Shown piece by piece: positions 18,001-24,000 of a stretch of 27,083 nt of DNA. How positions within the stretch are numbered: the stretch's first letter is position 1; each line of letters opens with the position of its first letter. Made by a program: the position numbers. The DNA comes from Candidatus Micrarchaeia archaeon (GTDB lineage Archaea; Micrarchaeota; Micrarchaeia; Anstonellales; J096), in assembly GCA_041500405.1 (NCBI GenBank), contig JBGQMB010000011.1, forward strand, positions 1-27,083, written 5' to 3'.

Positions 18001-21000
18001 TGCATGTCGCGGGCCCTTTCGCCTGCCGCCAGCGCAGATACCCTGTACTTGTCGTCCTTGGTCCTGCTGTGCAATATTAGGTATATTGCCTCTGCAACAT
18101 CAGGCCTCTCCAACAGTTGGGCCTTCCTTGCAAGGAACTCTATCCTTTGCAGACAGTGGGGGTCTTTTGTTTCATCGTGCAGCCGCGCCAAAAGTTCGGC
18201 TGCGGAGGTAAGATTGTGCCCGTGTCCGTCGCGCTCGTGGAACTCCGCGAGGCGCGCTCTCACCCGTACGGGGTGTATTGAAACAACATTTCCTTCTGTT
18301 TTTGCTGCAAATGTACTGTTCATATAATCACTTATGTGTATGAACATGTTTAAAAGCGTTTCTGTTCGCCCAATGCCCCGTCCATACGATTATAGAGATG
18401 GAAACGTTCATTTGAAAGGTTTAAAAGGCTGACGGCAAACACAGGGACATGGACGCATTCAGGATTGCCGTCAAGTCCTTCATTGTCAACAAGGACAATG
18501 AGGTCCTCCTTGTCAGGAGAAGGGACAACGACCCGCACAAGCCGGGCGTCTGGGAGGTTCCAGGCGGCAGGCTGGAGCTTGGCGAAAACCCCTTTGAGGG
18601 CTTGAAAAGGGAAACGGTTGAGGAAACGGGCATCGGCATAGACATTCTCAACCCGCTCAAGATACACCATTTCACAAGGGATGACGGGCAGAAGATAACA
18701 ATGATAACATTCCTTTGCAGGCCGAATTCGCACTCTGTTTCAATCAGCAATGAGCACACCCATCACGAGTGGGTCCATCTGGACAAGGCTGAATCAAAAA
18801 TATGCAAAGAATTCCAGGAGGAAATAAGCATAATAAGGAAATATTTCGTCAAAACAAAGTGACGCGCACCGAGATTTAAAACCGTTTCCTTAAACATAGG
18901 GCTATGGACAAGCGGTTCGCGGAACTCATCCTTGACGCGAAGGCAGACAAGGAGAAGGAGGCTAAGGCAAAGCTTGCGGAGTTCGTGAAAAACGCAGAGC
19001 TTGACGCCGACGGCAAGTTCGTTGAGCTGTGCTTCTGCATCCTTGTCGCGAACACCAACCTTGAAAAAACAAAGTCAGCGTGGGAGAAAATCGGGGATGG
19101 ATTCCTTTACCTTGACAAAAAAGAAATCAGCAAAAGGCTAAAGAGCCACGGATATAGGTTCTACAACGTCAGGGCGAAATTCATTGTTGAAGCGCGGGAC
19201 AGGAAGGACGAGATTGAGCGCAGCTTCAGGATTATGAATGATGAAACATTAAGGCAGTGGCTGCACGACAATATTAAGGGCCTTGGATGGAAGGAATCAT
19301 CGCACTTTTTGAGGAACATGGGATACAGGAATTTTGCCATACTTGACACCCACGTCATTGGGTTTATGCGCAGGCACGGATTAATTGATCATGTCCCAAA
19401 AACCTTGTCGTCGAAGAAAACATATTTCGGGCTTGAGAAAACTCTCAAGGATGTTTCAAAGGCGCTGAAAGTCAGCATGGCGGAGCTGGACATGTACATG
19501 TTTTACATTGACGCAGGAAAGATGCCGCAGAAATGACTATTTGCCGATGCAAATATCGAAATTTTCCAGGAAAACGTCAAACGTTTCGCGGCCGATGCTT
19601 TTTTGCATCGCAACAAGCGCATCAAGCTGTTTCTGGGATATGGGGTTGCGCTCCTGGTATTGGGGGAATTGATGTATTACGGGCGGTATCTCCTTCCATT
19701 CCTTTTCCAATATGGCTGGCCTCGCGCCATTTTGGATGAGCAGCAGGCATATCCTGATATGACCTTTCTTGGCCGCATACGTAAGCGCATCGATGTCGGC
19801 CGCGTCGACGGCGTTCAGTTTCGCGCCCTTTTCCAGCAGCAGCCTGCATATGCCGATGTGCCCGTTCTGGGCAGCCGCGATGAGCGCGGTCGCATGCACC
19901 ATATTGTATGGCTCCTTCTCGTTTATGCCGGCGCCTTGCGAAAGCCAATATCTGACTTTCCAGACATTTCCTTTTTCCGCCGCATCAACCAGCCCCTGGG
20001 CGGCAGTGTTGCGCGCTTCTGTTCTCTCGGCTTCGTCTTTCTCGAGCTGGGCCTTGCTTTTGCCGAAGAGCTTTTCCTTTGCCTTCGCGAAAGCTTCCTC
20101 TATCCTGTGTTTTTGCGCCATCATGGCAATTATGCATGAAATATTTTATAAAAGGCAAGCCTTCGGCTAGGCAAACAAAAATAAAAAAAAACCCGATGAA
20201 TTAGCTGTTCATATGAAACGCTGGCAGCAAGAGCAAGAAACACAGGTAGTTTAATCTTTTAGTATTTGCCGGCTGAACACCTCGGTTGCCCTTAGTGCTT
20301 ACACCGCAAACCTATCAAACCCATCTGCTATGGGCAGACTGCTTCCTAGTCTTGGGATGCGCTTCGACCTTAGATGCTTTCAGGTCTTATCGCAGTGAGG
20401 CGTGGCTGCCCAGCAATGCCATTACGACAACTGGTCCACCAGAGGCCCCGGGTCCATGTTCCTCTCGTACTAATGGATCCTTACCCTCAAGAAGCGACGC
20501 TTCCAGTAGATACTACCGTACTGTCTCGCAACGTACTGAACCCAGCTCATGTGAGTCTTTAATGGATGAACAACCCAACCCTTGGCGGCTCCTGCACCGC
20601 CAGGATGACCCAAGCCGACAGCGATGTACCAAACCGCGGGGTCGATGTGTACTCTCTCCCGCGACGAGCCTGTTACCCCCGGGGTAGCTTGTCTGTCAGA
20701 AAGGAGCCCCACTAAGAGGCTACCTTTGTTCGTTAAGCCCTGCTTTCGCACCTGCTTTCCACGCTTTTAGGAAAACAGTCAGGCCGGCATATGTCTTTAA
20801 CCCTCTCCAGCGGATTTCTGACCCGCCTGAGCCGACCATTGGGCACTCATGTTTCTTTTTCGTGAGTGTACCGCCCCAGCCAAACTATCCACCAGATGAT
20901 GTCCCCGTTAGGGTAAGCCGTACTAACAAAACTAGGTGGTGTGACATTGTCGCCTCCACAACCCCCGAAAGGATTGCTTCGAAGGCTCCCACCTACGCTT

Positions 21001-24000
21001 TGTAGTCCCATCAATACAGCAACATCTGGCTATAGTAAAGCTCCACGGGGTCTTCGTTTCCCACTGGAAGTCCCCGGCATCTTCACCGGGCAGTGAGTTC
21101 ACAGAGTTCCAAGCAGGGACAGTGGGGGAGTCGTTACGCCATTCATGCAAGCCGCCAATTAAGCGGCGAGGTATTACGCTACCTTAAGAGGGTCAGAGTT
21201 ACCCCCGCTCTTTACCAGCCCTTCTTCCGGTTGAACCCGATATTCAGGTACTGGCAGTGAGCAGGCGTCGGCCACCATACACAGCGTTTCCGCTTTGCGG
21301 TGACCTGTGTTTTTGATAAACAGTCGCTCCCCCCTAGTTTCTGAGACCTGCTCTCTACACGAGGGCAGGCACTCCTTGTACCGAAGATACGGAGCTAACT
21401 TGCCGAGTTCCCTTGCCTGGATTCTCTCTACAGGACTGAGCTTTTTCAGCTAGGGGCACCTGTACTAGTTCTAGGTACGAACATGAAGGATCGTTCCCTA
21501 CTCTCTTTTCATGGGCCCAAGGCATCGATTCCCTTACGCATTCAAAGTTTCGCTTCCTTCTCCTCATAATGAGACTCCGGAAACGTATTCTTCTTAGACT
21601 CCTTGCGGAGCGGAACCTAGCCCCAGGCGTCGAGAGTAGAGCATTCATTGCTGAAAACCTACCTCCATGGGACAGGAATATTAACCTGTTTCCCATTCGT
21701 CCGCGACGAGTTGCGTGCGGACTTAGGATCGCCTAACTCTTGGCTGACAAACATGGCCAAGAAAACCGTGCCCTATCAGTCCCCTGGGATTCCCACCCAG
21801 GTATGCTGCTACTAATGCCAGGATATTCATTCCAGACCGCTCCATCGGACCTCACGGCCCAACTTCTCTGCGATCCGGACGCCTCCTTACTCAACGAGCT
21901 TTCGCTCTGGATGGGTATCGGAAACCAGTTTAGTCCCGTCAATTTATGATAACTGCTCCCTCGGCTGGTCCGCTTTTACGCGTTGCTTAGAGGGTGGCTG
22001 CTTCTAAGCCTACCTTCCAGCTGTCTAAGGGAAGAGCTATCTCCCTGATTCACACTTAACTGGTATTTAGGGTCCTTAACCCAACGTACGGTCGTTCCCG
22101 TAAGGGCTATCGGGCTTACCCCGATAAACCCCACTGCGGCTGTCTACAGAGCCTAAGGATTCGGAGTTTGATAAGGAAGAGAAGGGTTTCCCCTCCTTAT
22201 TTCCTATTCAGTGCTCTACCCCTTAGGCATCCTCGAGCCACGCTGACCTGATGGTCATTTCAGAAGGAACCCGCTATCACCCGGTTCGATAGGACTATCA
22301 CCCCTAGGGCCGAATCACCCGAATGGATATACCAATAACGGTTGAAGCCCTCCACCAACATTCCTGCTGGCTTCAGCTTGTTCGGCTCTAGATCACACGG
22401 GCTTCGGGTCGCCAGACAGTGACTGAACCCCCATTAAGAGGTCGCCCCTGACGGATTGCTCCGCTGCGGGCTCTTGCTTTCGCTTCGGCTTTAGCCTTGC
22501 CACTGCCAGGAACTCCCTGGCTCTTGCTTCGAGAAGAACGCCACAACGCTGATGACCTGCGTGGCGCACCGCCTTGCGACGGATTGCTTCAGCAGGTTTA
22601 CTTTAACGCCATGGCCGCCTGTCCCCACATAGTTTCAGGTTCTTTTAACACCCCTCTCGGGGTCCTTTTCAGCTTTCGATCGCTCTACTTATGCGCTATC
22701 GGTCTGAGGATTATACTTAGACTTGGGAGTTAGTACTCCCGTATTCGCGCCTCCAGCCGGGAGACGCTACTCATTCGGTTCACGCCCACATCCTTCCCTT
22801 ACGGGACTATCACCCTCTATGGTGCGCCTTTCCAGGCGACTTCAAGTCAAATGCGGGCTGTTCCCCCACACATCCGCGCCGCTATTGCTAACGGCGCATT
22901 CGTGACGGTCTGACCAGGGTTCAGTCGCCCTTACTACCTGGGTCACTGTTGTTTTCTTTTCCTTCCGGTACTAAGATGCTTCAATTCCCGGAGTGCTTCC
23001 CGCACAACTTTTAAGGGTCGTGCGTGCGGCCCGATCCTAGGATTAACGCCTGCGTGCGGCTTCCCTAGGCTTATCGCAGCTTGCTACGGGGCTTCGCTAA
23101 CCTCAGCCAAGCCATCCACTAAATGGGTTACAGCATACCTGTGTTTCTTTACAGACTGATTCTAACTTCCATTTTGCTTTACTATTTTTTACTACACAGT
23201 TTTTGCTTTCGCTTCTTGCTGCCTGCGCTTCATACTCATAACCTATCCCGCAAAAAGCGGGATAGCCGCTAATATCATTAGGTGAACCTAATTACTGTGA
23301 ACATAGTTTTAAAAAGATATCTCCATTCCCTCAATCGGAAAACAGGCGTGAAAAAAAGCCATTTTTCAGTTTTAAACACTTTTGCACACGTTTAAAAACA
23401 GTTTGCGCCAAAATAACGGCATGGAAGACGATTGTGCCAAGCTCGAGAAGATGAAGCTCGACGCCCTTTCAATGCTACATGCAAAGGAATATGCCAGGTG
23501 CTGCAACCTGCTTGGGCAGGCTCCTGAATACAAGGAGCTTTATGAGGAGGGTATGGCATTGCTTGAGCAAGACGACATTGATGAACTCAGGGAAAAGCAT
23601 AAAGTGTTCGTGAGGACGCTTGCAAGGGAGATACCGAACCAAAGGTACAGGGCGTTCCTTGACAGGATTCGGGAAAATAAAGTCGATATTTCGAGTCTTT
23701 ACGCCAACACCATGCAGAAAACAAGCCTTCTTTTCAAGTTCTTTCCGGAGGATTTCGCGCCGGGAAAGCCAAGAGACCTGAGGTTCAGGAAGCCCCGCGC
23801 AATCGGAATCATATTCAGGGGCGTGGCGGACTATGCCAAAAGGAGAATGAAGGAGCAGCGCCAAATCATTAAGCTGGAGAGGCGCGCCTAGGCGAACGTG
23901 CCGTTCAGCTTGCTGATGTGGCCGGGTATCATTTGGCCGTCAAGCCCAGAGAGGTTCTGCGCAATATGGGGAACGACCTTGAACGTAAATGCTTTTTTTG

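Follow-up and report, generated by a model that had tools for sequence, protein, structure and literature searches.

Variation Known around the Peptidyl-Transferase Center

In 23S rRNA's peptidyl-transferase center (PTC), A2503 has been termed universally conserved, and its conservation has been ascribed to the control of stalling (PMC5499644, PMC10557674). The closest described archaeal PTCs are those of Pyrobaculum calidifontis and of Thermoprotei and Methanomethylicia, in which, according to the accessible part of the report, changes at 2447, 2453, 2500, 2501 and 2504 are fixed by clade in the 2447–2453 and 2499–2504 strands while the catalytic center stays intact and uL3 is of the archaeal type (Nissley et al., 10.1101/2024.11.12.623245); Micrarchaeota, DPANN, 2448 and 2503 are not mentioned in that part of the text. 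The 23S rRNA of Thermococcales (6SKF from T. kodakarensis, 9SRA–9SRE from P. abyssi) carries C2503, which we find in 73/73 matching genomes and on which we found no remark in the literature, together with canonical A2448 and C2499 and a retained U2613.

We analyzed a window of 27,083 nucleotides (the whole stretch of contig JBGQMB010000011.1 under study) from a Candidatus Micrarchaeia archaeon of the order Anstonellales, which holds a 23S rRNA gene with several variant bases in the PTC (table 1). The gene resembles those of Thermoprotei and Methanomethylicia in having clade-fixed changes in the same two strands around an apparently intact catalytic center, with an archaeal-type uL3 in the genome; however, the changes lie at 2448, 2499 and 2503 instead, and at each of the five sites that the accessible text names for Pyrobaculum (G2447, A2453, U2500, C2501, U2504) the base here is canonical. 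It shares C2503 with Thermococcales and differs from them at 2448, 2499 and 2613. The same bases occur in the laboratory alleles A2503C and G2032A-C2499A, but here they are combined, without A2032, as a phylum's fixed wild type. The genome-wide survey's note took this for a rewired core and a second lineage with a divergent active site, a description that we do not uphold: the core reads as intact, the changes are common elsewhere, and 2448, 2499 and 2503 vary widely among archaea. The window alone offers a moderate result, an intact core with variant neighbors.

An Intact 23S rRNA Gene with Authentic Variant Bases

The gene is a single uninterrupted unit that matches the full-length RF02540 model, with compensated helices and with catalytic core, P-loop, A-loop and sarcin-ricin loop all intact. 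The 86%-complete assembly yields no other 23S match, and the 16S gene lies on another contig (C9) and is hence unlinked. Positions were numbered by alignment to E. coli rrlB (NC_000913.3); this alignment and that of Rfam, which has posterior probability '*' at the variant columns, both bear out A2448G, C2499A, A2503C and A2433C as the note had reported them.

Table 1. Features of the 23S rRNA gene by position in the window (rRNA bases in E. coli numbering)
Feature	Positions	Strand	Evidence
23S rRNA gene, single uninterrupted unit	20240..23144	minus	RF02540 full-model match, 2451.7 bits
2609–2614 strand, one base short: U2609 A2610 G2611 U2612, without U2613	20511..20515	minus	Covariation with 2056/2057
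C2586 (E. coli U), common variant	20538..20538	minus	Alignment; several outgroup rows share C
A-loop, closing pair compensated to U2551-A2557	20567..20573	minus	Alignment and covariation
Target 2500–2507 of the guide D-half; U2504 (20620) predicted methylated	20617..20624	minus	Guide at G000:C15
C2503 (E. coli A)	20621..20621	minus	C in 70/89 loci, 23/25 families
A2499 (E. coli C), opposite A2453 (20671)	20625..20625	minus	A in 88/89 loci
G2447 and U2449–C2452 including A2451 (20673), unchanged around G2448	20672..20677	minus	E. coli alignment, comparison of loci
G2448 (E. coli A)	20676..20676	minus	G in 89/89 covered Micrarchaeota loci (of 90)
C2433 (E. coli A)	20691..20691	minus	C in 82/86 Micrarchaeota tree rows
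P-loop, length and sequence canonical	20873..20878	minus	Alignment
A2056 and C2057, pairing U2612 and G2611 (end of helix 73)	21056..21057	minus	Alignment and covariation

An assembly error, chimera or pseudogene might account for these bases, given that the genome is metagenome-assembled and that the RNA-library contigs (X11, X12) align elsewhere in domain V, the pieces listed not covering 2499–2503. Yet the DNA support claimed from other runs holds, with contigs spanning 20562–20690 in run X2 (0 differences) and 20609–21057 in run X3 (2 differences); the helices are compensated, a fitting guide RNA sits on a separate contig, and 94 genomes of the order carry the variant motif. Such an origin is so improbable that we regard it as refuted for practical purposes, and the variant bases are real, inherited changes.

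The variant 2498–2509 motif occurs in 94/136 genomes of the order, the remainder being 5 genomes with chance matches only and 37 without a match; no canonical 2498–2509 rRNA motif was found in the 136, so that the variant is fixed in 94/94 rRNA matches. The set was thus rightly called fixed across Anstonellales and other families, and it extends to most of the other families; we infer that the variant state is the root state of Micrarchaeota.

Unchanged Nucleotides and Compensated Pairs

At the level of sequence, the catalytic nucleotides are unchanged and the variant bases appear to surround an intact protein-making center. Indeed, 2061, 2063, 2251, 2252, 2447, 2449–2451, 2501, 2502, 2506, 2553, 2581, 2583–2585 and 2602 are invariant in every covered locus of 89. 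Around them we find changes beyond those noted earlier, namely G2056A with C2612U, C2551U with G2557A, A2589U with U2605A, and U2586C. Across loci, 2064/2446 is C-G in 50 and U-A in 33, 2551/2557 is U-A in 70 and C-G in 18, and 2589/2605 is U-A in 61 and A-U in 28; the 2453/2499 contact is A-A in 62, C-A in 25 and U-C in 1, with at least five changes at 2453 on our tree (FastTree, 1112 columns, deep nodes weak). C2433, seen in 0 outgroup rows among the tree rows listed, is the most lineage-specific of the changes.

The survey had also claimed a 1-nt deletion near 2609–2611. One base is indeed absent between G2608 and A2614, but its place is different: 2057 pairs with the third base 3' of G2608 in 80/83 rows, and 2056 varies together with the fourth (A/U 61, G/C 7, A/C 14, A/G 1), and because of this covariation we place the deletion at U2613, the gap falling between 20512 and 20511. 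Altiarchaeota and L504 have a 2609–2614 strand of equal, shortened length.

A Guide RNA That Tracks the rRNA

Archaeal dual-guide C/D sRNAs with C, D', C' and D boxes, the N+5 rule and U2552 as a target have been described (PMC4644070). A guide of this type lies on a contig unlinked to the 23S gene (G000:C15, ~4466–4524, box D at 4517–4520); it has both C/D and C'/D' boxes and antisense guides that obey the N+5 rule, and the genome encodes fibrillarin. Its D' half targets U2552 (20572) in the A-loop, the target common to both systems, whereas its second guide aims at U2504, which is absent from the text on the described sRNAs, and varies with the rRNA haplotype. On the basis of these antisense matches, 2'-O-methylation of U2504 and U2552 is predicted.

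That this guide pairs with C2503 had been proposed and is borne out. A strict scan (at least 10 pairs) missed it and a looser one recovered it; the guide pattern matches 133/401 genomes, with 3 control hits. After 9 chance-like genomes were set aside, 2503 faces G in 52/54 guides of C2503 families and T in 70/70 guides of A2503 families, the exceptions being G074 and G366 with A opposite C2503. One of two checked guides that predict U2505 mismatched its own rRNA.

The Same Bases in Other Archaea

That each PTC change is unique to Micrarchaeota is ruled out, each being common in other archaea. C2503 occurs in 24/24 Altiarchaeota as well as in Thermococcales; A2499 is present in 57/69 Nanoarchaeota-phylum matches, of which 58/69 retain A2503; and, among the matches listed, G2448 appears in Asgard, Bathyarchaeia and Nitrososphaeria records and U2062 in Nitrososphaeria and Thorarchaeota. 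All three changes are combined in 2/69 Nanoarchaeota-phylum genomes and in 4/9 genomes of another small phylum. Three archaea-wide motif scans supply examples rather than frequencies, and the complete one (47 rows) demanded non-T at 2496, so Nanoarchaeota cases escaped it; among Iainarchaeota, 107/131 genomes gave no match even to the loosest pattern. From the recurrence of the same changes in several archaeal groups it follows that bases often termed universal are not, and whole archaeal orders lack A2503, contrary to the claim of universality.

Proposed Compensated Drift and Its Alternatives

We hypothesize, with a probability of roughly 0.6, that these changes record drift, with compensation, in a second shell that tolerates change, with catalysis intact and the A2062-A2503 pair gone. 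The changed molecule would be the cell's working 23S rRNA; its changes would have reached fixation ahead of the divergence of the Micrarchaeota families and later have been absorbed by compensation, helix partners altering alongside, A2453-C2499 passing through A-A and several times on to a swapped C2453-A2499, and the unlinked guide for U2504 shifting in step with the rRNA. Ribosome function is likely to be near normal. C2503 should be unable to form the A2062-A2503 Hoogsteen pair, which Cfr methylation of A2503 likewise blocks (PMC10557674), and its loss would therefore weaken A2062-dependent stalling and phenicol-type drug binding, presumably as a by-product and not as a cause.

Drift is favored by the fast-growing, free-living Thermococcales, all of which have C2503. 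A2448 and A2503 of E. coli show mutational flexibility in vitro (PMC7049736), and the flexibility of 2448, 2499 and 2503 in vivo ranks as medium (PMC10146877 Table S1); a single-operon strain with A2503C is viable (PMC4797290), and stalling requires A2062 and A2503 whereas synthesis does not (PMC5499644). Against it, C2499 is off the flexible list in the accessible part of the in vitro report (PMC7049736), wild-type A2503 is strongly preferred (PMC10146877), and phylum-wide fixation with repeated, independent arrival at C2503 and A2499 would also be expected from selection.

Selection could have come from natural inhibitors of the PTC or tunnel, made by neighbors or host cells. Related families add A2453C, G2505A and G2576U, and the latter two have a role in resistance. 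A2503C was selected under chloramphenicol in Rhodothermus and E. coli and confers ~4-fold oncocin resistance (PMC8614978, PMC4797290), and linezolid resistance results when C2499A is combined with G2032A (PMC4652758). Synergy of A2499 with G2032A is nevertheless ruled out in this genome, which has G2032, and A2032 is found in only 1/90 loci. C2503, moreover, is fixed in Thermococcales and reversed to A in the sister families f12 and f13. Thermococcales live at vents. Because some resistance comes with almost any PTC change that is tolerated, the overlap is expected under drift too, and we consider selection by inhibitors unlikely.

Slightly less likely still is that the A2062-A2503 sensor was actively discarded, through a change at 2503 in the majority of families and at 2062 in the clade where A2503 returned, the gain being less stalling in cells that are small and streamlined. 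One of the two adenines is lost in 82/83 loci read at both sites (A-C 65, U-A 16, A-U 1, A-A 1), and U2586, which forms a stalling relay with 2062 and 2503 (PMC5499644), is changed too. The pattern amounts, however, to about two evolutionary events; the 11/57 in a larger f12/f13-type sample that retain both A2062 and A2503 rule out that the two strictly exclude each other; Nanoarchaeota-phylum cells are equally small and mostly keep A2503; and U2062 is not confined to Micrarchaeota.

Inheritance of a thermal adaptation from an ancestor that lived in the heat, an argument made for the cytidine variants of Thermoprotei, would fit the hyperthermophilic Thermococcales with their fixed C2503 and the Pyrobaculum variants, which are mostly to C in the accessible text. 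That text names no change at 2503, however, sediment and freshwater runs hold our sequence best, and G2448 and A2499 are frequent in groups that are not known to be hyperthermophilic; we judge this improbable. Evasion of homing endonucleases or introns aimed at conserved rRNA sites is less probable again: many relatives have PTC-proximal insertions (after 2449, 2471/2472, 2533 and 2593), but the insertion-bearing genes already hold the variant bases, that of L193 directly beside G2448, and 0/90 loci have an insertion at 2499–2503.

A Remodeled Sister Clade

The survey's note had set aside the "different variant" of other families: f12 and f13, a Micrarchaeales-like sister clade, truly resemble and exceed the Pyrobaculum case, having C2453 and, partly, C2500 in common with it as far as the accessible text goes and adding further changes. 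Their P-loop is one base shorter in 85/85 read, and on the tree they regained A2503 from C2503. This clade is the strongly remodeled one, and the literature searched yielded no description of its remodeling or of the variant PTC.

A bolder reading, which we offer tentatively and at clearly less than even odds, is that the functional center is far less universal than taught: Thermococcales, Altiarchaeota, the Iainarchaeota read and most Micrarchaeota would translate without the A2062-A2503 sensor, and one Micrarchaeota clade would have rebuilt tRNA-holding elements from the ancestral state (the P-loop shortened by one base, the C2507-G2553-G2582 triple broken, the 2453-2499 contact swapped and 2505 altered), so that CCA ends might be held in a geometry unseen in any structure. 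In the Micrarchaeota series, PTC changes follow one another in order along a natural path, accompanied by compensations and by a guide RNA that co-evolves; such a series is of use both to ribosome engineering and to the prediction of intrinsic drug insensitivity. Thermococcales have working genetics; because these A2503-lacking organisms also have solved ribosomes, the reason for the conservation of these bases is directly testable.

Rejected Couplings and Probably Misassigned Records

Two ribosomal proteins were considered as partners of the rRNA changes and rejected. The uL3 tip is Phe-Lys here versus Trp-His in Thermococcales, yet G313, G062, G004, G103, G039 and G366, of the same haplotype, keep Trp-His; structure entries of M. 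acetivorans type and of Pyrobaculum also lack Trp. The uL4 loop, 8 residues longer, occurs in other DPANN genomes and is missing in the C2503 Thermococcales. Apparent convergence in Thermoplasmatota (L050) was likewise dismissed, since 1/24 genomes of the family match and the sequence is like those of L502/L504, so that the contig is probably mis-binned; G471, L028, L040, L053 and L070 likewise appear mis-binned.

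Variant Bases and Their Spread within Micrarchaeota

The genome-wide survey's note had reported G2448, A2499, C2503 and C2433 in the 23S rRNA of the window together with independent DNA support, and both reports are confirmed: all four bases are present when numbered by comparison with E. coli rrlB from NC_000913.3, and contigs from two other DNA runs span 20562-20690 without differences and 20609-21057 with two (RNA-library pieces among the matches listed end short of 2499-2503). The one-base deletion that completes this set (herein referred to as the variant haplotype) is also real, but it had been placed near 2609-2611 and is assigned here to U2613, because 2057 and 2056 pair with the third and fourth bases after G2608; the first pairing is Watson-Crick or wobble in 80 of 83 loci, and the second is Watson-Crick in 68, A/C in 14 and A/G in one of the 83. 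Only a single 23S gene was detected in the assembly, flanked by protein genes and unlinked to the 16S gene (on contig C9 of this genome). Three ankyrin-repeat proteins are encoded nearby, at 13792-15817 and 19537-20124.

Fixation across Anstonellales likewise stands: among the matches listed, 94 of 136 genomes carry the variant 2498-2509 motif, five have chance matches only, 37 have no match and none has the canonical motif in rRNA. The haplotype is present in records of Anstonellales, Anstonellaceae, Bilamarchaeaceae and Burarchaeum. A DNA search matched 288 of 401 genomes (including two unpublished genomes, G198 and G029, which enter the claims made here through the denominators alone), from which we tabulated 90 loci in 25 families (30 top scorers and 60 picked from 150 listed matches for family coverage), leaving one locus, L172, out of the counts because its many insertions spoiled the alignment. 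G2448 occurs in 89/89 covered loci, A2499 in 88/89 and C2503 in 70/89, that is, in every family except f12 and f13, a Micrarchaeales-like sister clade. In a FastTree phylogeny (114 rows, 1112 columns, peptidyl-transferase center [PTC] columns masked, six short rows removed) Micrarchaeota form one clade (support 0.92) with weak deep nodes, under which the parsimony root state is the window's bases; f12+f13 are nested inside (support 1.0), and their A2503 is therefore a reversal. Many relatives have domain V insertions after ~2449, 2471/2472 and 2593, absent from the window's 23S rRNA. Escape from introns is a highly implausible origin of the variant bases because these insertions sit beside them.

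Features of the variant 23S rRNA, its guide RNA and related loci
Feature	Location	Strand	Basis or note
23S rRNA gene, full archaeal	window 20240-23144	minus	RF02540 match
G2448	window 20676	minus	comparison with E. coli rrlB
A2499	window 20625	minus	comparison with E. coli rrlB
C2503	window 20621	minus	comparison with E. coli rrlB
C2433	window 20691	minus	comparison with E. coli rrlB
Dual box C/D guide	G000:C15 (own genome), about 4466-4524		halves aim at U2552 and U2504
Loci with 23S domain V insertions	L193-L198, L201, L204, L206-L210, L173, L174, L190		
f12/f13 loci	L151-L169 and rRNA loci among L331-L450		short P-loop, altered 2507/2582/2505/2453/2062
A2505/G2610 loci (f16, f19, f21, f22, f27, f30)	L175-L180, L185, L187-L190, L192, L195		

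A Guide RNA That Changes with the rRNA

The box C/D guide that the survey had described for U2504 does pair with C2503, and its other half pairs with variant U2551 and A2557; the genome encodes fibrillarin, and 2'-O-methylation of U2504 and U2552 is predicted. The guide pattern matches 133/401 genomes versus three control hits, and 24 of 30 fetched loci retain both halves; nine matching genomes were set aside by eye as chance-like, five of which were fetched and were without a second guide. Excluding these, 2503 faces G in 52/54 guides of C2503 families and T in 70/70 guides of f12/f13, although these are kin and not independent. Families with A2505 show the matching T in seven guides, and five f12 guides predict U2505, with which the rRNA agrees in one of two genomes checked (G353) and disagrees in the other (G238). 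That two unlinked genes change together argues that the variant 23S rRNA is the one that would be processed.

An Intact Core with Compensated Changes

G2061, C2063, G2251, G2252, G2447, U2449, A2450, A2451, C2501, G2502, U2506, G2553, G2581, G2583, U2584, U2585 and A2602 are invariant in the covered loci, and pairs 2064-2446, 2551-2557 and 2589-2605 each occur in two Watson-Crick forms. A2453 and C2499 are hydrogen bonded (PMC4652758), a wobble according to a reference title in PMC7049736; here 62 loci, the window's among them, have A-A at 2453-2499 and 25 have a swapped C-A, the tree shows at least five changes at 2453, and a 100-row f12/f13-type rRNA sample holds 96 C2453-A2499, two U2453-C2499 and two unreadable or doubtful rows. 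The description of the core as rewired is not supported: the catalytic bases are unchanged in all covered loci.

Passages of earlier work describe A2448 and A2503 as flexible in reconstituted E. coli ribosomes, C2499 not being so listed there (PMC7049736), and report medium in vivo flexibility at 2448, 2499 and 2503, with a strong preference for wild-type A2503 (PMC10146877). C2499 lies in the third shell, and its simulated loss is offset by new A2453-U2500 bonds (PMC4652758). Beyond the observed sequence, fixation, compensation, guide tracking and wide spread, we hypothesize, with a probability of roughly 60%, that the PTC changes accumulated through drift and compensation against an archaeal background that is permissive to them, and that the ribosome would catalyze normally while lacking the A2062-A2503 pair. 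The A2503C allele is viable and confers chloramphenicol resistance (PMC8614978, PMC4797290); fixation by drug selection is unlikely, given that the A2032 partner is absent. At 2499, a base of the resistance type is reported to be present in human 28S (PMC4652758). The A2062-A2503 Hoogsteen pair is reported as needed for stalling and dispensable for synthesis (PMC5499644, PMC10557674), and a deliberate loss of stall sensing fits 82/83 loci but fails in 11/57 of the larger f12/f13-type sample, making it quite unlikely. Heat adaptation is very unlikely, as the sequence's holders, sediment and freshwater runs, fit it poorly.

Neither the altered uL3 tip nor the altered uL4 loop tracks the haplotype. 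On contig C21 of this genome (L557), the uL3 tip lacks Trp-His and the uL4 tunnel loop exceeds that of Thermococcales by eight residues, a feature shared with other DPANN genomes.

Remodeling in a Sister Clade

The strongly remodeled center is that of f12+f13, not the window. Their haplotype is that of Micrarchaeaceae and Micrarchaeales records (among the matches listed) and comprises A2062U, A2453C, G2505A/U, C2507G and G2582A/C/U, with U2500C in 7/19 loci; in E. coli, C2507-G2553-G2582 form a triple and G2505 pairs with C2610 (passages of 10.1101/733584). In all 85 f12/f13 loci read (98 loci, 13 unread), the P-loop (helix 80) has one base fewer than those of E. coli and the window; 41 of the 85 have an A inside it. 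Families f16, f19, f21, f22, f27 and f30 have A2505 together with G2610, the two bases being exchanged relative to the window's G2505/A2610, as well as U2576 with U2579 and a matching guide RNA; in genomes checked, the uL3 tip carries Glu.

The Same Changes in Other Lineages

The survey's interpretation is supported in part: the divergent active site is an inherited variant set tracked by its guide, but its core is intact and its bases are not unique, and the reading as a second distinct divergent lineage is not supported, as each PTC change is common in other archaea. A GTDB genome scan found non-A at 2503 in many groups among the matches listed. Each of the searches in Thermococcales, Altiarchaeota, Iainarchaeota, the Nanoarchaeota phylum and another small phylum was centered on a genome chosen for having a variant. 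C2503 occurs in 73/73 Thermococcales matches (of 99 genomes; many of the 73 are single chromosomes; order of L073 and G401-G502), one of which, G471, carries a Micrarchaeota-type sequence that is probably mis-binned, and in 24/24 Altiarchaeota matches (46 genomes), to which the U2613 deletion is common. In Iainarchaeota (131 genomes; G504-G633), 2503 is C or U in 21/21 rRNA matches, and 107/131 genomes fail even a loose 2498-2524 pattern, which may conceal a PTC that diverges further or reflect unassembled rRNA. Among 69 matches in 151 genomes of the Nanoarchaeota phylum, position 2499 reads A in 57, U in 10, and G and C in one each; 11 have a non-A base at 2503 and 12 have G2448. The three variants co-occur in 2/69, as they do in 4/9 matches of another small phylum. 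G2448 with A2503 occurs in Asgard (including complete MK-D1 and Loki-B35), Bathyarchaeia and Nitrososphaeria (among the matches listed), and A2499 in Acidilobaceae and Planctomycetota records (the latter among L480-L519). At these sites, then, the Rfam consensus would be a poor reference, and the features left as most typical of Micrarchaeota are C2433 and the full combination.

The passages of 10.1101/2024.11.12.623245 describe core PTC bases as more weakly conserved in archaea than they are in bacteria, name a divergent PTC only for Thermoprotei and Methanomethylicia, and mention neither Micrarchaeota, DPANN, 2448 nor 2503; these columns may already appear in its alignment and entropy files. 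By position, the window does not match that PTC, so its 23S rRNA would work in a comparable way but falls outside that class. Full-text searches, mostly outside subscription journals and none aimed at the P-loop, returned no account of the PTC of Micrarchaeota or of Thermococcales C2503. Two testable by-products are the shortened P-loop of f12+f13 and the C2503 of Thermococcales, for which solved ribosomes exist.

In the Nanoarchaeota-phylum sample, C2501A, a Pyrobaculum change, occurs in two genomes (G706, G712) and U2504C in many others. Natural C2503 is present, among the matches listed, in bacterial records L029, L049, L085, L110, L111 and L115, including a Rhodothermus MAG.
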